In this document: positions 438 through 61,690 of the stretch, in pieces | How positions within the stretch are numbered: the stretch's first letter is position 1 | Layout: each line of letters opens with the position of its first letter | Assembly: GCA_043228905.1 (NCBI GenBank) | Contig: JBHGNT010000013.1 | Coordinates: 16,926,001 to 16,990,000, forward strand | DNA length: 64,000 nucleotides | Reading direction: 5' to 3' | Source of the DNA: Azolla caroliniana | Lineage: Eukaryota > Plantae > Polypodiophyta | The notes under the pieces: model-generated | Told to the model about the DNA's origin: nothing | Seen by the model: only the letters and a program-made list of their open reading frames with translations | Databases searched by the model: none | Program-made: the position numbers and the translations under genes

Positions 438-862
438 TGTCATGATATGACAAGACTCGAACCCATGACCTTATGGTATATGGGTCAAGCTCTTAACCAT
501 CACACCATCTATTATAATTCATAAGATATTATTTTCATTTATGTTTTATTATAAGAAAGTAATGTATATTCCAGATTTCTCTGGAACATTCTAGAAGTTT
601 CAAGATTACTCCTGACAACACTATAAAAGAAGGCACTAGGCATTATGTTGAACCAAATTGGTTCAACGCCAGTCTTAAGCCTCTCAGCCGCTTTGTACTT
701 ATCTTTTCACATAATATATTAGCTGTTGTCATCATCTTTCTCTCTCTCTCTCCTCTTCTCACTTCCTCTCTCGGGAATCTTACGCAGTTCCGTCCTCTTA
801 GTACTAATAGTACTGCTCTTCTTAGTACTAATTCCATCTCTGCTTTAGTACTATTCCTGACA
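438..862 (+). repeat. 5' LTR of copy A
   Basis: Direct repeat of 5656-6080 with about 13 substitutions; TATAAAAG at 622-629. Confidence 0.97.
584..601 (+). promoter_or_regulatory. Perfect 4-unit heat-shock element in LTR U3
   Basis: GAAcaTTCtaGAAgtTTC (alternating nGAAn) 20 nt upstream of the TATA; also at 5802-5819, 35968-35985, 41183-41200. Confidence 0.8.
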
Positions 863-932
863 GTTTGAACCAATTTCTCCTTTCCTCCAGCCTACTTGTC
901 ATTCTCCCTCCTCCTACCCTTTTCCCTATACT

Positions 933-2090
933 ATGGCTACTGTTAGCGCCCAAGAATATCAATCTGTTTTCTCCGAGTTACAGTGCCTAAAAGAAAAGTT
1001 TGTTGCCCTGGAACAAGAAAACCAACGGTTTGTAGGGGATCTCCAACAAATCTCTCTCGAAAAACAACAAAGGCAACAACAACATGGGGAGTTAGCATTA
1101 CGGGTACAACAACTCGAAGCAGCGTTGCAACAACAAGGATCAAGTCCCCAAGGATTTCATAAAGAACCCAAGATTGGACTTCCTATGAAATTTGATGGAA
1201 CGCGATTGCAATTCCGGGGATTCCTTAATCAGGTACTCTTAGTCATCCAGATGCATCCTTCCCGATATCCCACTGATGCATCTCGAGTCGGCCTAATAGG
1301 CACGTTACTTAGCGGCTCAGCCTTGGCATGGTTCGCTCCGCTTCTAGAAAAACAATCACCCTTGCTCAATAACTTTGAAGATTTTATTGGTGAGTTTAAA
1401 GCCTGCTTTGGAGATACCGACGGCATCAGGACGACGATCAACAAGATCCGAAGATTGCGTCAAGGCGATTGTCCAGCCTCTGCCTACGCGGCGGATTTCC
1501 GTCTACTCGCCTAAGATATTCCCTGGGATGATCAGGCCCTCATGGAGCAGTTTCGCTACGGCTTGCGCAATGATGTCAAAGATCTGCTTTTAACCTTCCC
1601 CGAAGAACCAAAGTCTCTTACAGAGGCAATCAGTCGAGCGGTCCAATGCGACAACCGCCTTTTCGAACGGCGTTCGGAGCGTCAGTTACAAATAACACGC
1701 TCTCGGCCGGAACCCACATACGCCTCAGTCACGGCTAAACCGTTTGCACACGATGTACCTCAAGCCAATATTCTGACACCGATGGAGATCGACACCATGC
1801 GTCGACGCGGCCCGTTATCGGAAGAAGAAAAGCAACGACGACGTGTCAATCGATTATGCCTTTATTGCGGTGGATTAGGGCATATCGCCATCAATTGTCC
1901 CCATAGGCCAAGAAGATAGGTAAATCAAATCGTCGCCTGTACTAAACCCGAGTCAATTCTTCCCTTCGGAGTGTCTGATAGTATTAATAGTACTAATAGA
2001 GTGTCAGATAGTATTCATAGTACTAATAGCCCAAGTATCTCAAACAAATTTGAAATCCTTAGTCAATTAGATGAAGAGTTAAACGATTGA
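933..2090 (+). pseudogene. gag: gag of copy A (retrotransposon capsid + CCHC zinc knuckle), 2 premature stops
   Basis: PMKFDG..FRGF, CLYCGGLGHIAINC; colinear with the intact gag at 36327; stops at 1512-1514 and 1917-1919; natural stop TGA 2088-2090. Confidence 0.93.
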
Positions 2091-5000
2091 GTCCAGCCAA
2101 AATAGGAGCCGTTTGGTTGGACAACAACCCTAGATCTGTACAGCCCATTAGTGGTTCCATTCCTTCCAAGCAAGTTAGCAATGTGTTCCTAGCCCAAGTC
2201 ATTGTTAGTACTAAAAGTACTCCCCCAGTACCCATCCTAACACTCTTAGATTCCGCAGCTAATTCCTATTTCATGGATCGAAATTTTGCCCAAGCTTCTC
2301 AGATATCCCTAAGAAAACTTCCTTGTCCCGCATCTGTAGTAGTCATTGATGGTCGTCCCATTGCTTCTGGGAATATTGTAGAAGAATCAGAACCCATTCA
2401 AGTTGTCCTAGGTAGTTTTGTGTGTGTAATATCATTTAATATAATTAGTAGTCCAGAGCATCCCATTGTCCTAGGATTACCTTGGTTTGAATTACATAAT
2501 CCAGCCATAGATTGGAGAACAAGAGAAGTCCGATATCAACCACCCCAAGAATCTACTCACCGAGTTTTGACCATTTCACTCCATCAATTACGCGAAGAAG
2601 GACACAAGGAGCCAATGTCAGTACATCCTTCCAGCACTATTAAGAAGGACTCCTCAGTACAACTTCCGGCAAAATATCATCCTTATGCCGATGTATTTGA
2701 CAAGGTAAAAGCCGGTACCCTTCCTCATCACCGTCCCTATGACTGTCCCATCGATTTACAACCAGGAACCAAGCCACCATGGGGACCAATTTACAACTTG
2801 TCACCCACCGAGTTAGAAGTCCTTCGAGCCTACATAGAGGAGAACTTGGCAAGCGGGTTCATCCGTCATTCAAAATCTCCGGCCAGTGCACCCATCTTCT
2901 TTGTCAAGAAGAAAGATGGTTCACTTCGTCTCGTCGTTGATTACCGCGGATTGAATAAGGTCACCATCCGGAATAGGTATGCACTTCCTCTTATATCAAG
3001 TCTTTTAGAGCGAGTTAATGGTACCAAGTTTTTTACCAAAATCGATCTACGAGGAGCGTATAACCTCGTGCGGATCCGACCGGGAGATGAATGGAAGACC
3101 GTCTTTCGCACGCGGTATGGGCATTTCGAGTATATTGTTATGCCGTTCGGCCTAACCAATGCACCCGCAGTCTTCCAACACATGGCAAATGATATATTCA
3201 GAGACCTCTTGGATATTTGTTTGATCATCTATCTTGATGATCTATTGATTTATTCGAAGACCCAGCAAGAGCACGATTCTCGTGTACTATTAGTACTAAA
3301 GCGACTCCGCGAGAATGGTCTTTATGCCAAGCTAGAAAAATGTAGCTTTGACTGCAAGCAAGTGGAATTTCTAGGCTACATCATCTCCTTAAAGGGCATC
3401 GCCATGGATCCAACTAAAGTCCAAACTGTACTAGAGTGGCAAATTCCACGGTCGGTACGAGATGTACAATGTTTTCTAGGTTTTGCTAACTTCTACCGTA
3501 AGTTTATACAGGATTACTCGAAGATTATCTTACCCCTCACACAACTTACGAAGAAGGGCCAAGCATTTCTTTGGTCCATTGAAGCAGATATGGCTTTTCG
3601 GCATCTTAAGAAAGCCTTTACATCAGCACCGATTCTAGCTCATGTGGATACTAGCAAACCATTCATCATGGAGGCCGATGCTTCAGATTTCGCCCTTGGT
3701 AGCATCCTTTCTCAACAAGGAGATAAAGAAGAGTTGCATCCGGTGGCTTTCCATTCGCGCAAATTCGATGTTGCGGAAATCAACTACGAAATACATGACA
3801 AGGAGTTATTAGCCATCGTGGATTCATTTGTGCAATGGCGGCATTTCTTAGAGGGCTCTCCATATCAGGTTGTTGTCTTTAGTGATCATAAAAATCTTGC
3901 TTATTTCTAGAACGCTCGCGTACTAAATCGACGGCAGCCTCGGTGGGCGCAATTCCTCACGCGTTTCGACTTCAAAATCACATATCGACCGGGGAAGCAG
4001 CAAGGAAAAGCAGATGCACTATCACAGCGTTCATATCTTGCACCTCGTCCTGGTGATCCAACATTTGATAATCAAAAGCAAGTAATCTTGGGACCAACAC
4101 GATTGCACACGACGCGGATTTTTCACACCCCGATGGATTCACGAATTACCGATGACATACGTGCAAACTTGAAGACGGATAATTTTGCTCAAGACATCCA
4201 GGCGCACATTGATACTTCTCGAGCATCCTGTTCTTAGTCTCAAAAACCAGGTATTGACTACCGACAATTCGAATATCATGATGGTTTGTTATTCTTTAAA
4301 AAGCGCGTATATGTCCCCGATTGCTCCTGTCGCCTTCAAATCGTCCAGCATTGTCACGACACCCATACGGCGGGACATTTCGGTAGTACTAAGACGTTGG
4401 AGCTAGTGCAACGATCTTTTTGGTGGCCCCACATGCATCGTTTTGTCGACGACTACGTTCGGACCTGTGATGCTTGCTGCCGAGCAAAGATGCCACGACA
4501 CCATCCATATGGCTTGTTGGAACCCTTACCGATTCCAAGTAAGCCGTGGCAGTCTATTTGTCTTGATTTTATCACAGATCTGCCGGTCTCGCAGGGGTTC
4601 GATGCTATCTTAACCGTCGTCGATCGATATACGAAGATGGCACATTTTGTTCCGTGTACTAAGGCCATCACTAGCGAGGAAACCGCCGCCCTAGTCATGC
4701 ATGAGGTATTTCGGCATCATGGCCTCCCAGACAGTATCATCAGTGACCGAGGACCGCAATTTGTCTCCAAATTTTGGCAGCATCTCTTCAAGATGCTCAA
4801 GGTCTCTTGCAACCTCTCCTCCGGCTACCATCCTCTGACCAATGGGCAGGCAGAACGAACAAACCAAACACTGGAGCAATATCTCTGGTGTTTCCTGAGT
4901 TATCTACAAGACGATTGGGTCGAGATTCTCCACTTTGCGGAGTTTGCGTATAATAATGTTGTTCACTCCTCGACTCGAGTCTCCCCATTCTACGCTTATA

Positions 5001-5644
5001 CCGGTTCTCATCCTCGCTGATCGGTGATCGACACCCCGGAGCTACCTACCAATCCTCGTGTCGGGGATCATTTGGAGAGACTACGCAAGATTCAAATAGA
5101 TCTCTCGACTCATCTTCGTCATGCTCAACAGACACAGAAGACTTACGCGGATCGTCATTGACTTCCCTCGTCTTTTGCCATCGGAGATCGAGTATGGCTC
5201 TTACGTCGTCACATCAAGACTACTCGACCGTGTGACAAGTTGGATTATCGACGACTCGGTCCTTTCCGTATTTTGGGTAAAGTTAATGATGTCACATTCC
5301 GCCTTGATCTCCCTCCACAGCTTCAGATACATCCGGTTTTCCATTGTTCTCTTCTTGAACCTTATAAAGCAAACACCATTCCCGATCGTGTTACACCACC
5401 GCCGCCCTCGCTAGAGTTGGACGCCGGCCCGGAGTATGAAGTTGCTGCCATCCTCGATTCCAAACTTATTCGCAACAAACTTTATTATTTGGTCGATTGG
5501 GTTGGTTATAGTCCGAGCGAACGCACTTGGGAACCCGTCGAGCATGTTGCCAATGCTCAGGATCTGCTTGCTGATTTCCACCGAAAGTATCCGGACAAAC
5601 CCGATCCGCAATCAGCGCCGACTCGTTCCACTCGTCGTCTTTAA
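2078..5644 (+). pseudogene. pol: pol of copy A (protease, RT, RNase H, integrase, chromodomain) in the -1 frame, with premature stops
   Basis: LLDSAA protease, YLDD RT, EADASD RNase H, HHCC and DDE integrase, YEVAAIL..YLVDWVGY..TWEP chromodomain; stops at about 3908, 4235, 5018 and 5159. Confidence 0.95.
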
Positions 5645-5655
5645 GGGGGAGATAG

Positions 5656-6080
5656 TGTCATGATATGGCAAGACTCGAACCCATGACCTTATGGTATATG
5701 GGTCGAGCTCTTAACCATCACACCATCTATTGTAATTCATAGAATATTATTTTCATTTATGTTTTATTATAAGAAAGTAATGTATATTCCAGATTTCTCT
5801 GGAACATTCTAGAAGTTTCAAGATTACTCCTGACAACACTATAAAAGAAGGCATTAGACATTATGTTGAACCAAATTGGTTCAACGCCAGTCTTAAGCCT
5901 CTCAGCTACTTTGTACTTATCTTTTCACATAATATATTAGTTGTTGTCATCATCTTTCTCTCTCTCTCTCCTCTTCTCACTTCCTCTCTCGGGAATCTTA
6001 CGCAGTCCTGTCCTCTTAGTACTAATAGTACTACTCTTCTTAGTACTAATTCCATCTCTGCTTTAGTACTATTCCTGACA
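5656..6080 (+). repeat. 3' LTR of copy A
   Basis: Direct repeat of 438-862, preceded by the PPT and followed by TSD CTAGG. Confidence 0.97.
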
Positions 6081-8230
6081 CTAGGATTGCCTCCTTTAGG
6101 GTATCTTCTTTCTTCTTTGGGAAACCTTTAGAGTCGAAGCGTTGTCATGATTGTCATTGATAAGACAATGTTTAGGGATCAAATACAAGGTAGACTACAT
6201 TTAGGTGTATAAGTGTCAATCCATATAATGGTGGTGGTCATCAATTGACAATCATCAAGATATAGAGGAACACATAGTTGACCCAATTGGTTTCATAACA
6301 ATCTCCTTTGGTCCTCCCTCATTCCTCCCTCATTGACATCAATATAGTTGTGCCACTAATCCTCCAATGTTAGTTGTAAGCATTATCGTGTCGTATTTCC
6401 AACTTATTAGTCAACATTTTTTTATTATTAGTCTTGACTCTACTTGAATATTTTGGCCCCTTTACTTGGTGCATTAATCATTTTTAAGTAAAATATATTA
6501 ATAGATATATATATATTTAACGAAGTTCAATTAGTATGTGTGGCAATTGTAGTTTGAACCACCTACCCATTGTTGTCAATCGTCAATTGGCAACCATGAT
6601 TGTTATATGAATTGAAGTCGCCATGTACACGTGGATTAATATGATCACATGGGCCACATATCTCTATGCTTGTATTTTGCTTTTATGTGTACTACAATCT
6701 TGTTGTCTTTTTATTCTTACTATAAAGAACTTTGTTTCCTAGAGGTAAAATTGAGTGTTTCCTACTCTTATGTACCCCACATATGACAATGCATGAGATC
6801 ACCAAGTTCTTCCCAAAAACTTTGTTACTTTAGTATTTAAAGTAAAAGTTACTTTTTGGTATTTTTATGGTATTCTACATATTACAAGGTGTGTACATTG
6901 TTTGAGCCTTTCTTGTGAGAGTGTGGGTGCAACGAGATAGCATATACTAAAGACACGTGAAAGTTAGGATTTGAACCAAAGACCTTTGATTGATAACCCC
7001 ATAACATCTATTAGAGGCCAAAATAGGGCTAGCTTTAGATTATCTATATAAAAAAAAGGAGTCATAAAATTTCACGATATTATTTTAACATATGAGGCAA
7101 CTTTTCAATTGTTAATGATGGATTCTTAGATGCTTTTTACAAGCATGAAGCTCATAATTGCTATGTGTGGGATGTGTGTTATTAAGGGAGGTCTTTGAGG
7201 TTGGTTGGTTTGGCGGAGCAAGTAAATGATGAAGCATGACAATTGCATCTTGGTCTTTGCTCTTGATATGAGGGGAATTAACAATGACACATAGTCGATC
7301 AATGGTAGGTACAACTAAATGCCTATGATCTAATAGTAACTCGATCTTGTATGGAGACATTCTCTTCCTGGCTAGATGGTTTCTTATGGTGTTTCACTTT
7401 AGGATATTTCATGCCCAATCACAGAGCACACACTTCTCCCCCATCCTCAACATAGATGGTGCTCTGATAGGGATGCTTGCTACACACAAAGTGACCACTC
7501 TCTCACTCACATAATGGACATTGAATTGACCTCACAATAGCACGAACTATTATAGTTGAAGATTACAATGGTTTATACATGGATCATGCTTTCCTTCACT
7601 ATCCTTTTAAAAGTCATGATATCCATCCCCTTATTTCAAGTCAAGATTAAACTTAATTTCTCTTATATTTCAACATATAACTAGAGATCCCCCCATCTTT
7701 TATGTGGTGTTTTTTGCAAATACTTTACAAGCTCCCAAAAACTTATGAATGTATTGGAAGACTTTTGTACACATAGTGAGCTAAGTGTCAACAACAATAA
7801 GTCATTGAAGAAGTTAAAATTGGGAATGTGGTTACCATGCTTTTGTTATATGCAAATATGTTAGAAGATGCCTAGAAACTTGGGAGTGTATTGGAAAACT
7901 TTTGTATACATACTAAGATAAATTTCAATGCCTCCAAAACAAAGGTTATGTTTGTGAGGTATCAAAATAATGATAAACCATGCATTGTGAACAATAATGA
8001 GTTATTTCAATTTGTAGAAAGCTTACAATATATTGGGCTTTGAGATTCCCTTTAATCATAGATCAAATGGATGTGCTACCCACCATTAGGATGCGGGAAA
8101 CATGACTTATTGTGCATTTGCGAACATATGCAATGATGGGAAAATCAACTTTTCGGTTCTCAAGAAATATCTCTTTTAACACATTGATAAGATTACTACT
8201 TCTTTATGGGATTGATATATGGGTGGTTGA

Positions 8231-10650
8231 TGTTAGAAATATTGAGAATCGATTAGATAGGTATATAGAATTACAACCATAGAGATGGATATATGAAATC
8301 AAAACTTCTATTACATATGAGAGTAGCTCACAATAGTAGTTCACCCATACGCTCACACCTTCGAGCTTAGATAGGTTCTGGACCAGCTCACTACAAAATT
8401 AGTGGGGACTGATAATCAATCCAACCATTGTGTAAGAAAGTGGATTATATTCTATGTTTGGTCTGAGCATGACATTAAATGTGCAAGTCAGTTGATAGTA
8501 GTGGAGATATTCCTTTTCTGTCAACTTGCTTGTCAAATGACAAGTCAGTTATCTTGAAGTCAATGGCACATACTTCAAGACTAAGTACATTGTAACTTGC
8601 CCATAAAATATTCTAGTTGACTTGATTAGCCTACATCGCTCTTTCCTAAATACATTGTGTCCTACGCATCTACGGTTTCCTAGATTACCCCTTATCGACC
8701 CATATGGTCGAGTTGCACACTAGTTGCTCCTCATTTGGGGCACTATCACAAAATGTGCACTCTAAGAGCACATCTTGTGCACATATGGGGATATATTTAC
8801 AACTTGGGGCGATCATTGATTATATCTAACACTCCCCCTCAATTGTCAACCCATTGAGTTCACTTGGAATTGGGCCAACTCCTAGTTGTCGAAGGTGTTG
8901 TTGTAGATGTTCTGCTCCAAGCGCCTTTGTGAAGATATCTACAACATTGTCTGATGTCGGACAATACTCAAGCTCCACAATCTCATCATTTATTAGCTCC
9001 CACACATAGTGATACTAAATCTCTATGTGTTTAGTACGTGCATGGAATACGAGGTTCTTGGCAATGGCCATGAAACTCTAATTGTCACACTTCAATACTG
9101 TTGTCATCCTTATTGGAACTACCACATCCATAAGGATTCTTCTTAGCCAAACTACCTCACATGTCGTTATGCATGTTGCTTTGTATTCTGCCTCCGTTGA
9201 AGATAGTGCCACTTTTGGTTGTTTTTTTACTGCTCCATGAAATAGCTCTAGAACCTATTGAAAAACAATATCCAAGAACTAAATTTTTGGAATCACTATC
9301 TCTAGCCCAGTCGGAGTCGCAATATCCACTAAGTTCGTCAGTTGTTGGCTTGTAGAAGATTCCATATTTTAAAGTACCCACAATGTACTTTAATACATGT
9401 AGTGCAGATTTCCAATGAGTCTCCTTCGGTTTGTTGCTGAATCAACTCACAACACCAAACTGCAAAACAAATATCTGTCCTAGTGTTGAATAGGAAAATT
9501 AGACTTCCTACTAGTTGTCTATACTTCCTTATGTCAACCATTGGTGACGAGTCTTCTTGGGATAGCTTTAGACCATACACCGCCTTCTTCAGCTTGCGGA
9601 CTTTGTTTTTTGAATTCAACATCTCAAACCCTTGTGGTTGTGTCACGTATACCTCCTCCTTGAGATGCCCATTCAGAAAGTGCCTATTTGACATCCATTT
9701 GATAAATCAGCCATCCTCTTGAAGCAGCCAACACTATGACAATTCGAATTGTTGACATGTGAGCTATCAGGGCAAATGTTTCTTGTACATTAAATCCTTC
9801 AATTTGGGAGTATCCTTGCGCTACCAACCTTTCCTTGAATTTCTCCAAAGAACCATAGACTTTATTCTTTACTTTCCACACCCACTTGGTGCCTATCACC
9901 TTCTTCTTTGTTGGCCTCTCTACCAACTCCCACGTGTCATTTTTCATGATGTTATCATATTTTGATATCATCGCTTCTTTCCACTTCGGGTCAGCCATGG
10001 CTTTGTCCACCGAGGTCGGCTCACTCACTGAGCCTTTGATGTCCACCATCAAAGTTGTTAAGAGTCTATTACTAATCAATAGACCAAACTAAAGTAAAAG
10101 AAGGAAAATAGAATGGATAGAAGAACCCGTTCCACCTGACCACCCTCGAGCTATGATCTAGACATAGCCAACCTACCATTGACATCTCATAATGTTGGAT
10201 ATTAGGACGACTAATACCTTGGAAGAGATAAATACGATCATCGAGACGAAAGCCTAGCCCGCACCACCAGTGTCTCAGACAGCAGCCTTCCGACGTAATG
10301 TCCTTATGAGGGTAGCTAAGCCTCGTATTTATACCTTTTCCTAGACCCCTTGAATAGATACGTGCCTTTCTAAAATGGTCTCCATTCATTGGTTGCCCAA
10401 ATCATGATAGTGCATGCACCTATCATTCCTTCTATCCAATCACATTAGCCCCTTTTTTGGCACTAGCATAGGCTGAATGAGCAAGCCATTACCATAAGAT
10501 GGTTTAGCTTCCTTTTTTGGATAGTGGGTCGGGATTGGGTGGAATACTTCTTTGGTTGATGAGATAAGTTGAGAATTGTTTTTCTCAGCTAGATGTGGTC
10601 GTTCCTCATCGAACACCACATCACGACTTGTAAAAACTACATGTTTGTGG
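8231..10650 (-). mobile_element. 5'-truncated Ty1/copia retrotransposon (integrase end, RT, RNase H, 3' LTR)
   Basis: Minus-strand VFTSRDVVFDE, WKEAM..NDTWELV, KERLVAQGYSQ, YQMDVK, GYCDSDWA; PPT TTGAGGGGGAG next to LTR 8231-8831 with TGTTAGA/TCTAACA termini. Confidence 0.9.
10056..10499 (-). mobile_element. Solo-LTR-like insertion inside the copia, related to LTR 31052-31501
   Basis: Begins TGTTA; shares CCACCTGACCACCC and TGAGGGTAG..CCTC.TATTTATA with 31052-31501; right end approximate, TSD not found. Confidence 0.6.
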
Positions 10651-12025: not shown

Positions 12026-12895
12026 TCTTGATGGCAACATTTATCAGTACAAATTGTTAACATCGTGAGTCACCTATCAATACTACAATTGCTATATGAA
12101 AGTTATTTAGTTTTGGTCGCATGGGCCATCTTTAACTTTCGAGGATGATAACAAAATCTATCAATCTTTTTATTTCCCGTAATTAGCTTACCCTAATGGT
12201 AAGTTGTTTACACTACATCTCTCTCTCTCCTCTTTTTTACTCATATTTCTATAGGATTATCTCCTTCTTTCTTTTTTCTTCCTGTTTTTTTTTTAATAAT
12301 ATACCAAAACGTTGTGTTAGAATTTCTAACCTTTTTCGTTCTTGTATTTTTATTTTTGGTTTATTGTGATATAAGCTTTTGTTCCCATTTGTCACCCAAA
12401 TATAAGCCTTTGCTACCATTCATCAATTGAATAAATATTAAAATAAAAGTGCAAAAAATATGAGAAAAAAAATCTACATGACCAAAAAAAGGAATAAATT
12501 TATTTATGACCCGAGAAAGAGATACATTTTATTCACTGAAAATTCTTATAAGGATTTTTGTAGAGGCATTTGGATGTGCTTGACATGGGTGTTTTTTTAT
12601 ATATAGACCCCCCCCCCCCCCCCCCCTTCCCCCATATGTTCATGGAGGTGTAGTGTCAAGAAGTCAAGAAACCATCCAAGCACAAATACAACTAAAAATA
12701 CAAATACTAATATAGATACATCTATAGACAAATAGGGATACACATACAGATACAGATACATCTATAGACATATAGAGATACAAATACGTATACGTATACA
12801 GATACAAATATAGATACCAATAGCAATACCAATGGTAATTGTGAATACGAATGCGAATACGAATACGAATGCAAATAGAAATGAAAATCAAAATA

Positions 12896-13985: not shown

Positions 13986-16900
13986 TGATGATGATATTCT
14001 AATTTCCTCAGGAAGGCCAGAAACATGATTGACGAGATCCAAAAAGCAAGCCATAATAGAATTTTCTGCCAGGGAAAGGGTGTGAGATGCTTCTTGTCCT
14101 CGATCTCATGATTAGGATAATGCGTGCAAATGTCGTTTGCCCTAGTGAGCCCTCTCCAAGGTCATGTATACGAATGTAGAGGATGAGGGTATCTCTGCTT
14201 ATGTTAAATGGCATGGGGTTGAAAATATGTGGTTAGATGCATACAGTCATTCCTTGTGGATGTCTGAACATGTTGGGTTACAAGTCTTGCAATTTGGTAC
14301 TCTTGGCATCCTTGTCTAATTTGACCGTGTTTGCATCAGTAAGACATGATTTGATGGTCTGCCATGAGCATATTATCTGGTGTGTCGCTCAAGTAGTGTT
14401 GACATATTCTCTCTCTCAAACCATTTGCGTGTGTCCTTTGACCAACCAGAAGAGAGAATTTTGATTTTATTTGTCTTTTGTGTTTTTCTGGTAGATCTCA
14501 AGGTTGGATTGGTAGGCAATGCATCCCCCTTCCGTACTTTAGCTACATACTTGTGGATTATCCTAAGGTCCTCTAGTTTGATATGTGTGGCAGTGAAGAT
14601 GCTGTAGTAGAAACATCTTTTGTACCATTCATTTAATGTTGCTCCACCTCAATATGTTCACACCATATAGCAAGACTTGGATTACCAATACATTGAAATG
14701 GTTGGTCTTTTCTGCCATCTTGGAGGGTTGTGAAAATTGCATTTGGATACAAATTTATGACAGCATGCCCAAATGGATTTCAATTTACCTTCTATGCATA
14801 TGCCCCAATTGTAGCTGGCAGGGATGTTAATATGTACATATTTGAGCAATATAAAATATTCAATAGCTTTGCCCTTGTCAGGCATGGGTAAATATCTCTC
14901 TGGTTGATGTTGATTATAATGTACATGTGTTTTTCCTGCGTTCAGTGGTAGGATACTCTCCCTACAAAAATCTTCAAAGATGTGAAGTAATTCTTGAAGG
15001 ATGTTGACATCCCATGAGAAGAGCACCACATTGTCTAAATAGAGAAGTAGCATCACTAAATATTTGTGAAAGGCGTGTTCTAAAAGTTGCTCATTCTGTT
15101 GTAGCTGCATAAATAAATATTTTTCTGATCAAATAGTGGGCAACAGGAGGCAATCTTCCTTTACCCCAAGATTGATTCCAATCCCACCCACATTGCATTT
15201 TTAACAGTATTTTATATGCTCATAATGCCATGCTACTGTATTTTGGTATTCGCTTGATATACTAAGATTTGCCTTACATTATTCATGTTCCTTTCATCAT
15301 ACCACACCCAAAAAACAATTAAATCCACAAAACAATAAGAAGAAACCTTTGCAAGGATCTTTCAGAGGGCTGTAAAACTCCAATTGATCCACTTTTGCTG
15401 AATTTCACCACTGGAGAAGTTTTATATAAAAGAAGAGATATCTTCTTAAGATTTTGATCTAATTATGACTTAATTTTGTATCCAATAGCTAGATTGTTTT
15501 GGAACGAAGAAATTGACATTTTGCTGACTCAAAGACAGGCATCTCATTTGGGATTTTTTTATTATTGGAGACAATTCATTAGATAATTTCTCATTTGATG
15601 TGAAGTGTATCTGCCACTGTCCCTCTAGCTAGAGAGCATAAGACTTTCTCTACTTTCAAGGCTACAGTGTAGGTTAGCCATAGATCAACATGCATTTGGT
15701 CCACATTTAAGTGGCTATAAAATGATTGAGCATATCTCCAAAATCTGCATTTAGTTGCTGTTGTAGATTGTAGAACGTGTGATATAAAGGTCTTAGTGTT
15801 GGTTTTCATTTATATCCCAATATGCCGCATAAGGGATTCTTCTTTGTGAATGGTTTTTCTTTTTTATAGCTCTTCGATGTATTCCCTTGCAGAGTAGCCA
15901 TAGGCAATGAGTGACATGACTATCATTCGATGATAATCTGCAATTATCATGTTCCCATGTCTCTGCAAGGAAGATGGTGTCCAGCTCTTTGTGTATATCA
16001 CTTAGTCCAGTGCGTGCTTTGGCATGGGTGTCTAGATGTGAGCTTGGGCAGCATCCAGTCTCTCTAGGTAATTTTCCCAATATTGAATGTTAATTCGGTT
16101 ACATTAGTTCTCAACTTAAAGATCGATGTTAGGCTGTTTACTATTTCGTATGAATGACATCTAATGTGGCCAAGTAAAAGATTGACTCATGTGCTCCTGT
16201 CCCTTTCTTTGCTCTATGTGCACAACCAAATAAGCTAGTTAGGAGGGAATCTAGGGGTTTTAGTGACCTCTGAGATCAATCCATTTTGTAGAAAATCTGT
16301 GCATATGTTGGGATAAAGGCCTCAAGGACTCTCTTGGTTTAGTATATTTTGACCATTCCATGTGAAAGCTCTTTTTGAGAGCTTTCTAGACATACTTTTA
16401 CTATATCTTTGGCCCCAATTTGAGGGTTTATAGGCATTTACATTATTTTTATAACTTTTGGTTATTGGCGGTGTGTGAACATGCCAAAATGACCTAAAAG
16501 TTACTTACCAATAATAATTGGTTCCAAACCTCCTCTCATAATGAGACGTGGACTTTTAGCGGCTAGGGTTTCCTCTTCATTTTTTTGCATGGTTTTTCTA
16601 CTTTCTCTCTCCTCAAGGCAGCCCACTCCCGTAGTGTTTTGGATCTAACCATGCCATCACATCATCAGATCTTAATATAGCATAATGGCATATCTAAGTG
16701 CAAGCTATACACAACATTCAAGATCAGAACTTTCGATATCATGCAGATAGAATCAGAGTTAATGTAATTTCCTATGTACGAATTCCCTCTCTTTGTATTT
16801 TCCTTGAACAATGTTCATTGGTAGAAATTTGATGGATGTTTATAGTTAAATGAGGTTTAATTCGAAGTGTGAAACTTTTCAAGGTGTGTAATGAAAAGAA

Positions 16901-31892: not shown

Positions 31893-32728
31893 CATAGATT
31901 GACATATTCGTAGTCATGGGGTTTCCCATTCAAATGCAAACGAATACGTATACGAATGCATGGTCAAGTATTCGTTTAAAAATAATAAAAAACAAAAAGA
32001 GTACATGAACTCTCTCCTCCTTTTTAATTTCCTAAATATGATAGTGGACACTAATAAACTTTTATAATAAATATAAAATTATTCGTTTTATTTTTAATAA
32101 ATAAATAAAGTCTCATTAATTTCTCACTTTTTTATTCTCTCAAAATTTATGGATATTTTTATCTGACATTAAAAATGCATTAATCATATTTCTATAATGA
32201 ATATAAAAATATTCGTTTTTGAAATAAATAAAATAAAGGTTCATAAACTCCCCCCTTTTTTATATGAAACTATAAAGGAGAGTTAATACTAATCATATTT
32301 TTATAATCTATTAATAAATGATTGTTCTTTTTTTAGTGAACTATTTTTTTTTAAAAGTAATTAATTAATTTTTTGTATATTTATTTTGCAAAACGAATGG
32401 TTTTATAACACAGTATAAACCATACATGTCATACGTGCAATCGAGTATGGTAAACACCCTCAAAGAATGGTAAATACCATTATTTTGGATTAACTATTTA
32501 TTATGAGGTAAATAAACCTAAAAAAAGGGAGAAAAACAAAAAAAACACACCAATGTTTGAATAACATTCGCATTCGTTTTCCAATGTAGGAAAACGAATG
32601 TTATGCTAGATGAACACAAATTTTACGTACTATATTTTATAATATTCTTGGGGCCATTTCGTATTCTCGAATATTGCGAATGTCACACATGGAGAATGTC
32701 GCGAATATCACGCATGTGACAATCGATG
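31893..32728. mobile_element. Non-autonomous hAT-type DNA transposon (836 bp)
   Basis: TIRs CATAGATTGACA / TGACAATCGATG; 8-bp TSD CTCGTAGG (31885-31892) / CCCGTAGG (32729-32736); subterminal CGAAT/ATTCG motifs; interrupts gypsy coding sequence. Confidence 0.85.
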
Positions 32729-35831: not shown

Positions 35832-36253
35832 TGTCATGATATGGCAAGACTCGAACCCATGACCTTAGGTTATATGGGTCGAGCTCTTGACCATTAGACC
35901 ATCTATTGTAATATGTAGGATATTATTTTCATTTACATTTTATTAGTGTATATTCCAGATTTCTCTGGAACATTCTAGAAGCTTCAGGATTACTCCTGAA
36001 AACACTATAAAAGAGGGCACTAGGCATTATGTTGAACCAAATTGGTTCAACGCCAGTCTTAAGCCTTTTAGCCACCGTTGTATATTCTCTTCATATAATA
36101 AATATCTTTCTTATCATCACTCTCTCTCTCTCTCTCTCTCTTTCTCTCTGTCTCGCTCACTTCTTCCTTCTCTCGAAGAAGTTCCACACCTCTCATAGTA
36201 CTAATCCTTCGTTTAGTACTAATTCCTTCTCTGTCTCAGTACTGTTCATGACA
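35832..36253 (+). repeat. 5' LTR of copy B
   Basis: Direct repeat of 41047-41478 (about 9 substitutions plus a 10-nt CT-repeat length change). Confidence 0.97.
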
Positions 36254-36326
36254 GTTTGAACCAATTTCCCTACCTTCTGTCTCTCTCATTTCCTACTAAT
36301 CTTTTATTCCTCTTTTCTTTCATCCC

Positions 36327-37478
36327 ATGGCCACTGTTAGCGCTAAAGAATATCAATCTGTTTTCTCGGAATTCCAATGCTTGAAGGAGAAGTTCCATGC
36401 TTTGGAACAAGAAAACCAACGGTTGCTGGGGGATCTTCAGCAAATCTCCTTAGAAAAGCAGCAAACGCAACAACAACATGGGGAACTTGCGTTACGCGTG
36501 CAACAACTCGAAGCCACCATCGTAGCGATGCAACAACATGGGCCCGGAACACAAGGGATTCATAAAGAACCTAAGATTGGCCTTCCCACGAAGTTCGATG
36601 GAACGCGATCGCAGTTTAGAGGGTTCCTTAACCAGGTACGATTAGTTATTCAAATGCATCCTTCCCGATATCCCACCGATGCATCACGAGTGGGTTTAGT
36701 AGGCACTTTGTTAAGTGGCTCAGCGTTGTCATGGTTCGCTCCACTATTAGAAAAGGAATCTCCGTTACTCAACAATTTTGAAGAGTTTCTAGGTGAGTTT
36801 AAAGCATGTTTCGGAGATACTGACAGCATCAAGACCGCAATCAACAAAATCCGGCGATTACGCCAAGGTGACCGTCCAGCCTCCGCATACGCTGCAGATT
36901 TTCGCCTACTCGCCGCCGATATCCCTTGGGATGATCAAGCGTTGATGGAGCAATTCCGTTATGGTTTACGCAACGACGTCAAGGATTTACTCTTGACCTT
37001 CCCCGAAGAGCCAAAGTCCTTAACAGAAGCAATCAGTCGCGCGGTGAGATGTGACAACCGCCTCTTTGAGCGACGTTCGGAACGACAGCTACAGATGCCG
37101 AGGGCAAGATCAGAGCCCACCTACGCCTCAGTGGTAGCAAGACCTTTTCCGAGGGAGTCATATAATGCGTCTCCAGCGAATACTCCGACTCCGATGGAGA
37201 TTGACACTACACGTCGTCGAGGGCCATTATCCGAAGAAGAAAAGCAGCGACGCCGTACAAATCGACTATGTCTTTACTGCGGTGGACCAGGACATATCGC
37301 AATAAATTGCCCCCATAGGCCAAGAAGACAGGTAAACCAAATAGTCGCTAGTTCTAATTGTACTAAATCCGAACCTATTTCAGTAGGGATATCTGATAGT
37401 CCTAATAGTACTAATATCCCAGATCTAGCAAACAAATTTGATGTCCTTAGTCAGTTAGAAGAAGAGTTAAACGACTAA
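36327..37478 (+). CDS. gag: Intact gag of copy B (383 aa; capsid + CCHC knuckle)
   Basis: Uninterrupted ORF with PTKFDGTR, LRQGDRPASAYAADF, TPMEID and CLYCGGPGHIAINC. Confidence 0.93.
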   Translation: MATVSAKEYQSVFSEFQCLKEKFHALEQENQRLLGDLQQISLEKQQTQQQHGELALRVQQLEATIVAMQQHGPGTQGIHKEPKIGLPTKFDGTRSQFRGFLNQVRLVIQMHPSRYPTDASRVGLVGTLLSGSALSWFAPLLEKESPLLNNFEEFLGEFKACFGDTDSIKTAINKIRRLRQGDRPASAYAADFRLLAADIPWDDQALMEQFRYGLRNDVKDLLLTFPEEPKSLTEAISRAVRCDNRLFERRSERQLQMPRARSEPTYASVVARPFPRESYNASPANTPTPMEIDTTRRRGPLSEEEKQRRRTNRLCLYCGGPGHIAINCPHRPRRQVNQIVASSNCTKSEPISVGISDSPNSTNIPDLANKFDVLSQLEEELND

Positions 37479-40400
37479 GTCCAGCCAAAATAGGAGCCGT
37501 TTGGTTGGACAACCCTAGATCTGTGCAGCCCATTAGTGGTTCCATTCCCTCTAAGCAAGTTAGTGATGTGTTCGTAGCCCAAGTAATAGTTAGTACTAAA
37601 AGTACCCCTCCAGTACATGTCCTAGCACTCCTAGATTCCGGAGCTAACTCTTGCTTTATGGATAAGAAATTTGCTCAAGCTCATAAGATATCCCTAAGAA
37701 AACTCCAGTGTCCAGCCTCTGTAGTAGTCATTGATGGACGTCCCATTGCTTCCGGAAATATCCTGGAAGAGTCAGAGCCCATTAATATTGTCCTAGATAA
37801 CTTAGTATGTGTAGTATCATTTAATATTATTAGTATCCCAGAACATCCTATAGTTTTAGGACTACCGTGGTTCGAGTTACATAACCCTGACATAGATTGG
37901 AGAACAAGAGAAATCCGGTGTCGACAAACCCAAGGGTCAACTCAGAAGATGGCAACCATTTCGCTACGTCAGTTGCGTAAAGAAGGGCACAAGGAGGAAA
38001 TGTTCCTCTTTGCAATATCAGTAAACCCCTCCAACACCACTAAAGAAGAATCCACCGTTCAACTTCCCGAGAAGTATCGCCATTACACCGATGTGTTCGA
38101 TAAAGTACAAGCCAACACACTTCCTCATCATCGACCGTACGATTGCCCCATCGATTTACAACCGGGAAAAGAGCCGCCATGGGGACCGATCTACAATTTG
38201 TCACCAACCGAGCTGGAAGTCCTTCGGGCCTATATAGAGGAGAATTTGGAAAATGGTTTCATTCGGCATTCGAAATCTCCAGCCGGTGCGCCCATTTTCT
38301 TCGTCAAGAAAAAAGATGGATCGCTTCGTCTCGTTGTATGGCTTGAATAAGGTTACAATCAGGAATAGGTATGCTCTTCCCCTTATCTCAAGTCTTTTAG
38401 AACGGATCAATGGTGCCAGGTTCTTCACGAAGATCGACTTACGGGGAGCATATAACCTCGTACGGATCCGACCAGGAGACGAATGGAAGACCGCGTTTCG
38501 CACCAGATATGGGCACTTCGAGTATACTGTCATGCCGTTCGGCCTCACTAATGCGCCGGCAGTCTTCCAGCACATGGCTAATGATATATTCCGAGATCTA
38601 TTGGATGATTGTTTGATCATCTATTTGGATGATCTACTGGTTTATTCAAAGACCCAAGAAGAACATGATTCTCATGTACTATTAGTACTAAAACGACTTC
38701 GAGAACATGGTCTGTATGCAAAGCTAGAAAAATGTAGTTTCGGGTGCAACCAAGTGGAATTTCTCGGCTACATCATTTCGTCAGAAGGCATCTCCATGGA
38801 CCCAGCTAAGGTCAAAACGGTGGTAGAATGGCATACTCCGCGTTCGGTACGGGATGTGCAATGCTTCTTAGGCTTTGCCAATTTTTACCGGAAGTTCATA
38901 CAGGATTACTCAAAGATCGTTCTACCTCTCACACAACTTACCAGGAAGGGACAACCGTTCATCTGGTCTGAAGAAACGGACATGGCTTTCGAGAGTCTTA
39001 AAAAAGCATTTACATCGGCTCCAATTCTAGCTCATGTCGATCCGGAGAAACCATTCATTATCGAAGCTGACGCATCGGATTTTGCATTGGGGAGCATTCT
39101 GTCACAACAGGGGAATGATGAAAAGCTACATCCTGTGGCTTTTCACTCACGCAAGTTTGATGCCGCTGAAATCAACTACGAAATCCATGATAAGGAGCTA
39201 TTGGCAATAGTGGATTCTTTTATGCAATGGAGGCATTTTCTGGAGGGATCCTCTCATCCAGTCACCGTATTTAGTGACCACAAGAATCTTGCCTACTTTC
39301 AGGATGCTCGTGTGTTGAATCGACGTCAAGCTCGGTGGGCCCACTTCCTCACGCGTTTCGACTTCAAAATTACATATCGTCCGGGGAGGCACCAAGGGAA
39401 GGCAGATGCATTATCACGGCGTTCGTATCTAGCACCCCGTCCCGGCGAGCCAGCTTTCGATAACCAAAAACAAGTCATCTTGGGACCGGCACGATTACAA
39501 GCAACACAAATCTTTGACATGCCTATGGATTCCCGCGTTATCGATACCATACGTGAAGACTTGAAGACAGATGCGTTCGCCCAAGCTATACTAGCACAAA
39601 TTGATCCCTCTCGAGCGTCGTGTTCACAGTCGCAACCACCAGGTACGAACTATCGGCAATTCAAATACCATGATGGATTACTCTTCTTTAAAGAACTTTT
39701 GTATGTTCCTAATGGTTCTTGCCGCCTTCGAGTAGTACAAAACTGTCATGACACATATACAGCTGGGCATTTTGGTAGTACTAAAACATTACATTTAGTA
39801 CAACGATCATTCTGGTGGCCCTGTATGCGACAATTTGTCGAGGATTTTGTTCGGACTTGTGATACATGTTGCAGAGCGAAAATGCCAAGGCATCATCCAT
39901 ATGGTTTATTAGAACCATTATCAATTCCAAGCAAGCCGTGGCAATCCATTGCTCTAGACTTCATCACAGATCTTCCAGTCTCTAAGGGGTTCAATGCGAT
40001 TCTAACGGTGGTCGATCGATATACGAAGATGGCTCATTTCTTGCCATGTACTAAGGAGATCTCCAGTGAAGACACTGCCGAAATTGTCATGCGTGAAGTA
40101 TGTCGGCATCATGGACTCCCCGATAGTATCATCAGCGACCGTGGACCCCAGTTCGTGTCAAAATTCTGGAAGCACCTTTTTAACATGCTCAAGGTCACTT
40201 GTAACCTCTCTTCCGGCTACCACCCACAAACTGACGGCCAAGCTGAACGAACAAATCAAACGTTGGAGCAGTATCTGCGGTGCTTTCTCAGCTATCATCA
40301 GGACGACTGGGCAGATATTCTCCACTTCGCCGAATTTGCCTATAACAACTCTATCCACGCATCCACTAAAGTTACGCCATTTTATGCTTATACGGGATGT

Positions 40401-41054
40401 CACCCCCGGTGGAGTGTACTTGAAACCCCAGAGGTGTCCACAAATCCGTGCGCGGAGGATCGTTTGGAGCGGTTACGCAAGATACAAGCGGATTTATCTA
40501 CTCATCTCCAGCAAGCTCAACAAACACACAAGGTCTACGCGGATCGTCATCGACTTCCATCTAGTTTTAATATTGGAGATCGGGTGTGGTTGCTACGACG
40601 ACACATCAAGACTACTCGCCCATGTGAGAAGTTGGATTATCGGCGATTAGGTCCTTTCCGTATTATTGGAAAGATTAATGATGTTGCTTTTCGTCTCGAT
40701 CTACCTCCTCAACTTCAGATACATCCAGTGTTTCATAGTTCTCTCTTCGAACCCTACCACGAGAGCACCATCCCAGAACGTCTTATCCAACCTCCACCCC
40801 CGATCGAGCTTGAAGATGGGCCGGAGTACGAGGTTGCCGCCATTCTTGATTCCAAGATTGTTCGCAACAAGCTCTACTATCTAGTCGATTGGCTAGGCTA
40901 TAGTCCCAGCGAACGTACTTGGGAACCGATCGAGAATGTAACCAATGCTCGTGCTCTTCTTGAAGACTTCCATCGTTAATATCCACACAAACCGGGTCCT
41001 CAATCCAAGACGACTCGTGACACTCGTCGTTTTAAAGGGGGGATAGTGTCATGA
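37466..41054 (+). pseudogene. pol: pol of copy B (PR-RT-RH-IN-chromodomain) in the -1 frame; 8-nt deletion near 38338 and a late stop at 40977
   Basis: LLDSGANSCF, YLDD, EADASD, HHCC/DDE and chromodomain; RLVV-DYR-GLN codons lost relative to copy A, causing a frameshift. Confidence 0.93.
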
Positions 41055-41331
41055 TATGGCAAGACTTGAACCCATGACCTTAGGTTATATGGGTTGAGCT
41101 CTTGACCATTAGACCATCTATTGTGATACATAGGATATTATTTTCATTTACATTTTATTAGTATATATTCCAGATTTTTCTGGAACATTCTAGAAGCTTC
41201 AGGATTACTCCTGAAAACACTATAAAAGAGGGCACTAGGCATTATGTTGAACCAAATTGGTTCAACGCCAGTCTTAAGCCTTTTAGCCACCGTTGTATAT
41301 TCTCTTCATATAATAAATATATTTCTTATCA

Positions 41332-41374
<43 letters not shown>

Positions 41375-41478
41375 GTCTCGCTCACTTCTTCCTTCTCTCG
41401 AAGAAGTTCCACACCTCTCATAGTACTAATCCTTCGTTTAGTACTAATTCCTTCTCTGTCTCAGTATTGTTCATGACA
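41047..41478 (+). repeat. 3' LTR of copy B
   Basis: Direct repeat of 35832-36253, followed by TSD TGTGA. Confidence 0.97.
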
Positions 41479-51510: not shown

Positions 51511-51575
51511 GGTTCAAGTGGGATTTGAATTAACCTCCCACTCATTGCACATGCTCTTACCAATTGATCCAAACC
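51511..51575 (-). mobile_element. tRNA-derived SINE-like head
   Basis: Minus strand GGTTTGGATCAATTGGTAAGAGC...TTCAAATCCCACTTGAACC: A-box-like and degenerate B-box-like motifs. Confidence 0.45.
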
Positions 51576-56823: not shown

Positions 56824-57225
56824 TAGCCTTGTGGGTCAATGATGAAACGCGTCCAACGTGATATCTAGGCCATGCATTCCACTAGCTTAATCATAGGGTA
56901 TCATGAAGACATACACTTTGGCTTACAAGAATTCAAACCCACAACTTCTTGGTTTATGTGTTAACCTTTAACCATTATAATAACATATATGATGTATAAT
57001 CATCAAGATATTTAGAGTATTCTAGAACATTATAGAGTATTTATTCTGGAACATTCTAGATTATTCCATGATTATCATAAATATCTTAAATATTCTAGAA
57101 TACTCCTTAAGAACTTATCAATAGGTGACTATTCATTCATCACAAGTAATTCGGTTCAACACCAATCTTCACCCCTTAGTCTACTCTTTGTAACCGTTGT
57201 TCTCTTATAATATAAACTCCTTCTA

Positions 57226-57256
<31 letters not shown>

Positions 57257-59374
57257 CTGCTCTCAAGTCATGACATGGGGAGCCCATTGGTTACTTAGGT
57301 TGCATTGTTGGTATAGATTTACCATCTAAAGTGATGATATCACCATTGCATGTTATCAATAAAGTGTAAGCTATTATATTGGGAATCTCGGCACCTCTCC
57401 TTTGCAGGCCAAGTTGTGATTGCAAATTCAGTCTTGCTAGCCTCCGATGTGGTTTATCACATCCGTCTAGGTCGGCAATAATGAAAGTTCAAAGTCTCAT
57501 GCGTAACTTCCACTGGGGTGGAAAGAATGGGCCTCACGCAGTGGCCAAGGTGGCATGGAATGTCTTGATTATGCCTAAAAGCCAAGGAGTTATGGCTTTA
57601 ATAGATCCCTTGATGCAATCTCGAGATCTCTAACAAAGTTTGTAGGCAGAGGACTGTTGTCAAGAATAGAGGCCTAGAAGGGTATGCTGCTTAATCAACT
57701 AATGCAATTATCTTCCAAGACGGGAGGAAACTGGTTGCCATCTTTGAAATGGATGTTCTTGATAGATGTACAAACACCGAGACAAAATCTGTCATTAAAT
57801 AGATTTCTCCTAGGAATCGTCAGAGCATAGGATGTAATCAAAATTTTCTTACACAAACAGATGCCTGACACACAGGATGGCTGGATGAATCAACCTCTTC
57901 AAGCTATTCTCTCATCCAGGATTTTGTTGGAAAAGTATTGGGCCTTAGGACTCGTCTTGCTTGAGGAAAACTTGATAATGGGCTAACAACATCAGTGACA
58001 TCTTGGATTCATTTTCAACAAATGTCAAAAGCAGATAATCTTGAGTAGTTACGCTCGATACATGGTGTGAAGACAATAACAATGGATATTCCAGCAGCTT
58101 TCTCGCAACCTTAGGGCAATTTCAGCCAATGTAGGAGCATATTTGGTTTGGTTGCCTTACGAATGCTATGATGTTTTTTGTTAAAGGAATTTCTGCAAAT
58201 GAACGTATTTTTTATTTTCATATTAAACAGGATAATAAATTCTAGCCTAATATACCCTTGGGCAATTCACTACAAAACTTACTTGTTGTTCCAATTAGGG
58301 TGATGGCTAAATCCGGTAAGAAATGGCTACACTACATCCACAACCATCAATAGCTTATTTGTGGGATATGCTTTGGTTATATGCATGGCAGCCAGTTGGT
58401 AGGCTTATGTGGGACCTAAGGGATGGTTCTAGACCAATCCCATGATGGATCTATTGCAGAAAGTTCCATTCTTTCAGTACACTGTGAAATTTGGCAAAAC
58501 CTTACTCATGTCTAAGAATACTCTAATTCCTTCAGTGAGAAGCACTGGCATAACTGGGGTGTTTAAAGTATGATGCATTTGAAGGCTTATTGGAAATGGA
58601 TTTGGTCTTTTAGGGAACCAACCAAATATATTCTCTTCAAATGACTTTTACTACATGCATAACACTACCAGTAGGTCAGTCACCGAAAGGAGATGTGACA
58701 ACCATTCTTAGACAATGTTGTTATTGTTGTGACATGCAAGAAACTACCAAGCATGCTCTCTGGTCCTGTTCACTAGCTCATCAAGTATAGAATAACGTTC
58801 CTTCTTTATTCCCAACGACTAATGCAGGTTGCCTCTTCTCCTTGGGATCAACAATATGGGGGGTTCTCCATTCCAGTCTAGAGTCACTTGTTGTATGAGG
58901 CAAATGATGTTCCAGAGGCTATGATAGTCATCAAGAGGCACCTAATTTATGTCTCCCTCTTTCAGCAACCTCGCAAGCAAGTGCATGCAACCCATGTATG
59001 GAAAACAATGTCAACAATTACATTATAGATCTTATGGAAGTATCGTTGTAAAAGATGATATTGTTCCATAACTCCTCTTCTCTTAGATATATTGCCCAAC
59101 CTATGGGAGAGCTTGTTGGCGGTAGTGTGCAGGCAATATGACACTATGCATGGTTCTTTGGAGGTTCTTAAGAAAAGGAAAAAATTACTTCAGTTATGGA
59201 GGAAGTTGCCTCTATTCACAGTCTCCCCTCAAGGACCAATCTGGAATTACCATTTCCCCCGGTCCTTGCTCTGACCATCTCCTTTGTACATAACACTTTC
59301 TAACTATACATTTTGTAGCCTTCCGACGTTCTTTTAATACTAATGAAGAAAATCTTTTGAGAAAAAAAAAAAAA
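56824..59374 (+). mobile_element. 5'-truncated degraded L1-type LINE with TSD, interrupted by a solo LTR
   Basis: GYLG, NFHWGG..AKVAWNVLIMPKSQG; poly(A) 59362-59376; TSD AACCAATGTG at 56814-56823 and 59375-59384. Confidence 0.85.
56899..57275 (+). mobile_element. Solo LTR distantly related to the LTRs of copies A and B
   Basis: TATCATGA...TCATGACA termini; TSD TAGGG/TGGGG; shares CTGGAACATTCTAGA, GGTTCAAC.CCA.TCTT and a CT tract with the A/B LTRs. Confidence 0.8.

Positions 59375-60997: not shown

Positions 60998-61690
<693 letters not shown>

Follow-up and report, generated by a model that had tools for sequence, protein, structure and literature searches.

Antisense tRNA-type promoter boxes in the LTRs of a lineage of autonomous self-priming chromoviruses

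Introduction

The only Pol III promoters known in long terminal repeats (LTRs) are those of short passenger elements, which rely on them to produce their own RNA. In the portions of Kojima 2024 available to us, Helenus is described as a set of short non-autonomous elements with tRNA-like LTRs, and within the TRIMp3 group Helenus is tRNA-derived, while Cassandra and Ajax are 5S-derived (PMC10886601). The same portions state that autonomous partners of such elements are expected to use Pol II promoters, and that "not a few" LTRs in Repbase have tRNA-like parts, of which the short ones alone were pursued (PMC10886601). Since only short elements were followed up, autonomous cases may sit unremarked in Repbase.

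Work from 2010 credited to Piekna-Przybylska is said to have reported a tRNA-Lys3-gene-like sequence in the U3-R region of HIV-1. In yeast Ty3, according to the excerpts at hand, the primer site is bipartite, and a part of U3 is complementary to the T and D arms of the primer tRNA-iMet (PMC5371799).

The Pol III factor TFIIIC recognizes tRNA genes through their internal A and B boxes. In the sections of the structural and binding studies that we draw on, base contacts fall on the B-box core in both human and yeast structures, mutations of C56 and G57 lower the affinity of yeast TFIIIC 370-fold and 56-fold, respectively, and tauA bound to the A box is required for TFIIIB recruitment (PMC11811891). 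Yeast tauB also touches a base upstream of the B box, and changes at +44 to +47 alter both binding and transcription; the A box itself contributes little to TFIIIC affinity, and the gap between the boxes in yeast is most often 32 bp (PMC11724288). In yeast and human, according to the part of the source used here, both tRNA genes and TFIIIC-only sites form barriers to heterochromatin (PMC12409998); the barrier evidence cited in this work comes from yeast and animals, not from plants.

Self-priming combined with a chromodomain is the pattern of the Tcn1/Tf1-Sushi chromoviruses, known from non-seed plants and fungi (PMC6317226, in part). In the accessible text of PMC2864245, the LTR of Selaginella Tcn1 is described with TATA and CAAT boxes only, and a PCR survey of 26 ferns and horsetails did not find Tcn1.

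In this study, we report a computational analysis of a 64,000-nucleotide stretch of DNA (the window) and of relatives of the retroelements it contains, following up a first-pass annotation that had noted an antisense A/B-box pair in the U3 of an LTR. The tRNA-type promoter signature is real, lineage-wide and antisense in the U3 of autonomous self-priming chromoviruses, and its pattern of conservation indicates that it is apparently under selection.

Results

Two full-length chromoviruses and a solo LTR

The window holds two full Ty3/gypsy elements, at 438-6080 (element 1) and 35832-41478 (element 2), and a solo LTR, with duplicated target sites (TSDs) of 5 bp (Table 1). The full elements are 5.6 kb long and carry gag-pol domains, including a C-terminal chromodomain (PF00385, E 5e-14) that follows the integrase and SH3 domains and has aromatic residues, as read by eye, at cage-like places. 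The paired LTRs differ at 13 of 425 aligned bases in element 1 and at 9 of 422 in element 2, and the LTRs of the two elements are only ~80% identical to each other. The element was found in leaf and plant metagenomes, and four sequencing runs, each labelled with a different organism, contain its family in abundance. Together with the self-priming described below, this points to a host that is probably a non-seed plant.

Table 1. Coordinates of the LTR elements, the A/B modules and the putative promoter and priming features in the window
Feature	Positions	Strand	Remarks
Element 1, 5' LTR (TGTCA...TGACA)	438..862	+	TSD CTAGG at 433-437 and 6081-6085
B box, tRNA positions 52-62	453..463	-	core 53, 55, 56, 58 invariant in 17/17 cluster representatives
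tRNA positions 44-48 (AGGTC), just upstream of B box	467..471	-	most conserved block, pairwise identity 0.87
Spacer, former anticodon arm	472..491	-	constant in length; no conserved sequence (identity 0.36) and stem pairing no better than in shuffles
A box, tRNA positions 8-20	495..507	-	3' half better preserved than 5' half
AT-rich stretch, putative TFIIIB seat	517..547	.	82-84% AT, 10-40 nt upstream of position 8, 16 representatives
Four-unit nGAAn/nTTCn array	584..601	+	perfect units, before TATA box
TATA box, putative Pol II promoter of the element	622..628	+
Self-primer at the predicted RNA 5' end, PBS complement	655..666	+	3' arm of hairpin kept across families
Primer-binding site (PBS)	865..876	+	pairs with 655-666, not with a tRNA 3' end
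Element 1 gag-pol	861..5020	+	several separate reading frames
Element 1, 3' LTR	5656..6080	+	immediately after polypurine tract
A/B module, element 1 3' LTR	5671..5725	-	28.6 bits
Element 2, 5' LTR	35832..36253	+	TSD TGTGA
A/B module, element 2 5' LTR	35847..35901	-	best copy; 35.1 bits; E 5.5e-4
Element 2 gag, protease, RT, RNase H, integrase, SH3, chromodomain	36300..40979	+	three reading frames; Pfam
Element 2, 3' LTR	41047..41478	+
A/B module, element 2 3' LTR	41062..41116	-	33.6 bits; both CpGs gone
Solo LTR, another family of the same lineage	56899..57275	+	flanks TAGGG / TGGGG
Decayed A/B module, solo LTR	56929..56982	-	32-nt gap; C56 lost; 10.6 bits vs best of 40 shuffles 2.6

The predicted RNA start at 655 lies 33 nt after the start of the TATA box, and the 12-nt complement between RNA start and PBS indicates self-priming; in the relatives L022, L029 and L032 the two segments co-vary and still pair. 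The border between U3 and R forms a hairpin (647-667 and its equivalents in all four LTRs), the 5' arm of which repeats the PBS, and this hairpin is retained in most of the families that have the RNA-start motif. The RNA start itself fits a sense B-box pattern and is not accompanied by an A box. We also considered whether the complement of the B box could pair with the self-primer, and rejected this: only a GGTTC core is common to the two, and G57 dominates. Upstream of the TATA box, the GAA/TTC array of element 1 has a four-unit counterpart in element 2 at 35968-35985, and we take both to resemble heat-shock elements, an assessment made without a shuffle control. A three-unit array is present in 8 of the 18 LTR cluster representatives introduced below. 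The lineage may be heat-inducible, judging from these motifs.

The rest of the window is rich in repeats. Copia, gypsy and LINE-type remains were recognized at 9338-10088, 14682-15128, 31599-31913, 34053-34469 and 53603-54202, element 2 has an older, minus-strand remnant of chromovirus type close by, and a decayed 260-nt fragment of eukaryotic large-subunit rRNA lies at 56141-56401 (-) (89.8 bits). Arrays of a 12-nt ACATAC-type repeat at 60966-61706 and 12676-12813 give rise to long spurious ORFs. The 26 other ORFs of the window matched retroelement domains or nothing, with no host gene among them.

The A/B module of the window LTRs

In the 5' LTR of element 1, the A box reads TGGTGTGATGG at 507-497 and the B box GGTTCGAGTCT at 463-453, both on the minus strand and 33 nt apart; the A box of element 2, TGGTCTAATGG, is nearer to the consensus. 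In tRNA numbering, 45 nt span position 8 to G53. The boxes and their spacing thus stand as first annotated, and so does the presence of the module in all four LTRs of the two full elements. It does not form the very start of the LTR, as had been proposed, since 16 nt separate the B box from the LTR tip (11-65 nt in relatives).

Against a weight matrix built from 44 tRNAs (phage, archaeal, bacterial and two host-type), the module scored 28.6 bits in the first LTR and 28.6-35.1 bits across the four, compared with a best score of 22.7 and a mean of 14.0 bits in 60 locally shuffled 64-kb windows and with 21 bits for the next-best site in the real one; a small circularity attaches to these scores, as two of the training tRNAs had been chosen via their match to the module. 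A sequence-only profile of 27 tRNAs ranked the four LTR modules 1, 2, 4 and 5 in the window (E 5.5e-4 to 3.7e-3). The A/B-box match in the four LTRs is not due to chance. The copy reported in the solo LTR is also there, with its 32-nt gap; this LTR belongs to a different family, clustering with L028, L030 and L031, and its B box has lost C56.

The module in related elements

Relatives were selected by protein and not by motif, through alignment of the SH3-chromodomain end of pol against metagenome contigs, and the sample comprises 79 loci, taken from the best 80 of 536 matches, plus eight loci from a genome scan. Over their C-terminal proteins, identity to the query is 59-97%. The named homologues are fungal; no relative was found among the viral contigs searched. 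One ENA assembly series contributed 44 loci, of which 35 have at least 110 nt of 3' LTR. Within this series, as represented in the best 80 of 536 matches, the minus-strand module exceeded all 40 shuffles in 34 of the 35 usable LTR heads (14.1-37.0 bits), and the plus strand did so in none. Among the positives is one duplicated and decayed head (L020), and the sole miss (L033) is a copy without an A box, its protein being near-identical to that of the carrier L032. A-box scores are often weak, from -1.5 to 10.2 bits in the 34 positive heads.

These 35 heads and three window LTRs form 18 clusters at 75% identity, with a mean identity of 0.59 between representatives; the cluster counts overstate independence, as the families share ancestry. 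The full module is present in 16 of the 18 clusters and decayed at the same place in the other two. An exact GTTCRA B-box core occurs on the minus strand within the first 100 nt in 16 of 18 representatives, and on the plus strand in 0 of 18. The trait, first ascribed to a single family, is therefore present in that family and extends to the whole lineage.

Outside the ENA series, the 36 usable loci, mostly near-copies of two families, gave at most 5.1 bits in the first 200 nt, and a search of 700 nt on both strands in 14 of them gave a maximum of 15.0 bits. At E<=2, the sequence-only model detected the LTR module 16 times in 86 loci, roughly half the matrix yield, and its blanks are therefore weak.

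Conservation of boxes and spacing

Among the 16 module-bearing representatives, positions 44-48 had the highest pairwise identity (0.87), followed by the B box (0.78), the A box (0.62) and positions 49-52 (0.55); the spacer reached 0.36 and the flanks 0.28-0.38. The matrix had placed the rows in this comparison, which was repeated on a matrix-free MAFFT alignment of all 18 representatives, giving 0.84 for the B box, 0.90 for 44-48 and 0.68 for the A box against 0.52 in the spacer and 0.48-0.56 upstream. The boxes are far more conserved than the neighbouring U3, a comparison that the first-pass annotation had named among its refuting conditions and that did not refute its proposal. When the B box was fixed and the A box left free over 25-90 nt, the best A box fell at 44-45 nt in 14 of 16 representatives. 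Within the B box, positions 56-57 are CG in 11, CA in five and TG in none of the 16 representatives, and CG in 21, CA in 12 and TG in three of 36 copies; CA is tolerated in tRNA B boxes, and TG abolishes C56. In the middle of the spacer, 15 of 17 sequences have T at position 35, a conservation for which we have no explanation.

The same contrast appears within the family. Across 35832-35864, which covers the LTR tip, the B box and positions 44-50, two DNA runs gave no variant with a share of 2% of depth; variants are many in the spacer and the outer A box, and A14 varies in 12-23% of depth. This comparison covers contigs with a similarity of 80% or more, and the interval opens with 15 nt of integrase end, conserved regardless. 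Inserted copies have lost the CpG at three of eight module sites, compared with two of 20 in the remainder of the LTRs; this loss and the TG seen in three of 36 copies speak against strong shielding from methylation-type decay, any protection being partial or short-lived; on these small numbers, the earlier idea of a built-in insulator is weakened.

Fold and terminator

That the module is no functional tRNA, as had been noted, agrees with its stem pairing, which is at shuffle level in the acceptor (40/112 cells), anticodon (32/77) and T stems (50/80), compared with 552 of 567 cells paired in real tRNAs; the D stem, one of four stems tested, has 37 of 64 cells paired against an expected fraction of 0.51 (p 0.04). 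The Rfam tRNA model gave no gathering-level match in the window and none on two LTRs at E<=10. A home-made covariance model gave three LTR matches at E 0.15 to 8.1, the copy at 35847-35901 not being listed. The covariance check proposed with the annotation thus gave no significant match, and similarity to tRNAs came from the sequence-only profile. ARAGORN at default settings reported nothing in the window; relaxed settings listed the module only as one among 41 window hits and, with 41 to 355 hits, were uninformative. BLAST of the module against phages returned only matches at E 3-9, two of the six distinct ones on annotated tRNAs. If the module is regarded as a tRNA-derived SINE, the head alone is recognizable, and 11-65 nt of unconserved sequence come next.

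A search for a terminator found a four-T run after the module in nine of 16 representatives at 1-69 nt and a five-T run in one of 16, with no fixed place, which speaks against the earlier idea of an antisense Pol III promoter. No four-T run lies between the boxes in any of the 16 (four-A runs are also rare there), and the 16 share no TATA at a fixed position upstream of the A box.

Carriers, non-carriers and other tRNA-like units

A related group without the module is nested among the carriers, sister to L047/L051/L052 with support of 95-96, yet is repeated in its contigs; the module is therefore dispensable for transposition in general. A quick 21-row tree rejected a single carrier clade (p-AU 0.019), so that the carriers need two changes, and the history may have been one gain and one loss, two gains, or an LTR swap.

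Insertion targeted to tRNA genes was not supported: in ARAGORN searches of L004-L090, tRNA genes beside an element were found only in L019 (a further one lies in L089, a bacterial contig), and the window yielded none. The two in L019, at 552-627 (+) and 831-906 (-), are intact eukaryote-type genes (Asn and Thr) 115 nt from the 5'-truncated end of the element. At seven loci (L083-L088 and L090), chromovirus sequence of eukaryote type sits in contigs assigned to prokaryotic genome assemblies, which is probably due to binning contamination.

Further tRNA-like units lie outside the LTRs. One family has a second antisense A/B unit in the pol frame, in the protease-RT linker, at L009:2950-3005 (-), L012:1010-1069 and 6330-6386 (-), and L013:4960-5017 (-) (28, 21, 19 and 21 bits); it is absent from the same stretch of 13 other elements and looks like a separate in-frame capture. 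In a distant AT-rich relative, L046:4851-4912 (-) scores 34.8 bits between the pol end and the polypurine tract and is followed by a four-T run. SINE-like A/B units were also seen at L034:143-200 (+), L045:12432 (+) and L076:13950 (-), and the L034 unit, which has in common with the LTR module a block before the B box, is a candidate donor. Two lone tRNA-like fragments in the window, 6965-7000 (-) and 51515-51572 (-) (E 0.0023 and 0.21), are possibly old SINE heads; the former has no second copy among the loci.

Discussion

We put at about one in two the probability that the antisense A/B pair is a TFIIIC site on DNA that helps keep the element's own Pol II promoter open; that TFIIIC binding as such is the selected trait appears likely. 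The boxes and their spacing are kept and the spacer, flanks and cloverleaf are not, which fits a TFIIIC site on DNA and neither a tRNA-shaped RNA nor a primer-tRNA site. TFIIIC would dock on the backward boxes at the outer LTR edge and set TFIIIB into the AT-rich stretch between the LTR tip and the Pol II promoter, the putative seat lying between the module and the heat-shock-element-like array with its TATA box. The platform could then help the Pol II promoter 150-225 nt off, as a nucleosome-free anchor or as a barrier to flank chromatin; the distance from A box to RNA start is 152-224 nt in the nine of 18 representatives in which it is measurable. A backward orientation would be tolerable in an autonomous element because Pol III would then head outward and leave behind the Pol II start, the exact 5' end of which is the primer. 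The conservation of positions 44-48, otherwise odd, would be accounted for by the yeast tauB contact upstream of the B box together with the effects of +44 to +47. The tRNA-like origin proposed earlier is backed by these results, and we infer descent from a tRNA gene or a SINE head followed by purifying selection.

The strongest competitor is a working Pol III promoter whose RNA is selected, running antisense from the 3' LTR over the polypurine tract and into the pol end, where it might serve self-limitation or reverse-transcription control, and outward from the 5' LTR. We regard this as possible and rather doubtful: the retained A box, with its role in TFIIIB placement and hence initiation, the lack of four-T runs between the boxes (weak, given the rarity of four-A runs) and the antisense unit in the Gypsy 3' region of L046 speak for it, against which stand the variable terminator runs and a sequence past the B box at background identity (0.28-0.34), which means no conserved RNA body. 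Less probable still, and in our view unlikely, is a neutral remnant left by a SINE or tRNA that long ago inserted into an ancestral U3, or the site of another DNA-binding protein that resembles A/B boxes. Neutral decay would not spare the boxes and their distance while the spacer drops to flank level, among elements with a C-terminal protein identity to the query of 59-97%, and TG at 56-57 is absent from the 16 representatives; such a relic would nevertheless agree with the blank Rfam and structural-model searches, with the absence of the module from related elements and its decay in two of 18 clusters, and with the unexplained T at position 35.

Two further readings place the function in RNA. 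Pairing between the element RNA and the D and T arms of some host tRNA or tRNA fragment, as in yeast Ty3 and as reported for HIV-1 U3-R, would suit the contiguous block 44-61 and the strand and region, which match the Ty3 U3 site for the T and D arms of tRNA-iMet in the part of PMC5371799 consulted. The elements have no tRNA primer, their PBS pairing with their own 5' end and both co-changing between families, and positions 1-7 and 62-72, used by primers and end fragments, are at background; this reading therefore has low weight and is very unlikely, the more so as 49-52 differ between families and a spacer of fixed length is needless for such pairing. Production of a tRNA-shaped RNA has next to no probability and is largely refuted by the three stems at shuffle level, the slight excess of D-stem pairing being the one result in its favour.

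Genomes with such elements may hold many Pol III-factor sites missed by tRNA finders. A promoter that faces away from the genes of an autonomous lineage suggests a different use from that in passenger elements, in chromatin or antisense RNA. More tentatively, an autonomous plant chromovirus lineage may have domesticated a tRNA promoter as a standing LTR part, with every new insertion bringing an outward TFIIIC/TFIIIB platform beside a heat-shock-type Pol II promoter; this platform would shield or prime the element and spread Pol III sites in their thousands, along with possible chromatin boundaries, across the host genome. Repeated antisense captures, in U3, in the protease-RT linker of one family and in the 3' UTR of a distant element, would turn this into a general, overlooked Gypsy strategy. 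The lineage would offer a natural high-copy test of TFIIIC barriers in plants, with sister carrier and non-carrier lineages and decayed copies as controls.

Among described systems, the first-pass annotation drew its parallel with the 5S-derived Cassandra; tRNA-derived Helenus, which it missed, is closer, since both Helenus and the present elements have tRNA-like A/B boxes within the LTR, kept without a tRNA. Helenus elements, as far as the consulted text of PMC10886601 describes them, are 311-1263 bp long, non-coding and tRNA-primed, with boxes in sense orientation in the four LTRs shown and thought to drive their own RNA, whereas the elements here are 5.6 kb long, coding and self-primed, with a TATA promoter and with boxes facing outward on the minus strand in every case. 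The present elements are not Helenus, as three defining features fail: size together with coding, orientation, and the tRNA primer. Ty3 and HIV-1 likewise have tRNA-related sequence in U3; in the partial accounts used, their sites act on RNA with a primer tRNA, in contrast to elements without one.

The yeast and human barriers formed by tRNA genes and ETC (extra TFIIIC) sites similarly place a TFIIIC-type site between flank chromatin and a Pol II promoter. In the passages of PMC12409998 used here, these barriers are host loci or SINEs, and ETC sites are marked by an extended B box and lack both TFIIIB and Pol III; the putative site described here is part of an autonomous LTR and keeps its A box. 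By features, not by tree, the elements resemble the Tcn1 clade of Tf1/Sushi chromoviruses in Ty3/gypsy domain order, C-terminal chromodomain, self-priming, LTRs of 420-440 bp and a 5-bp TSD, and the portions of the Tcn1 descriptions available to us mention no Pol III boxes in the LTRs (PMC6317226, PMC2864245). Our literature search, which covered titles and abstracts with subscription papers mostly outside it, returned no autonomous or antisense case of a tRNA promoter in an LTR. The antisense tRNA-type promoter signature in autonomous elements thus appears to be new, the known counterpart being the short, sense-oriented boxes of Helenus.
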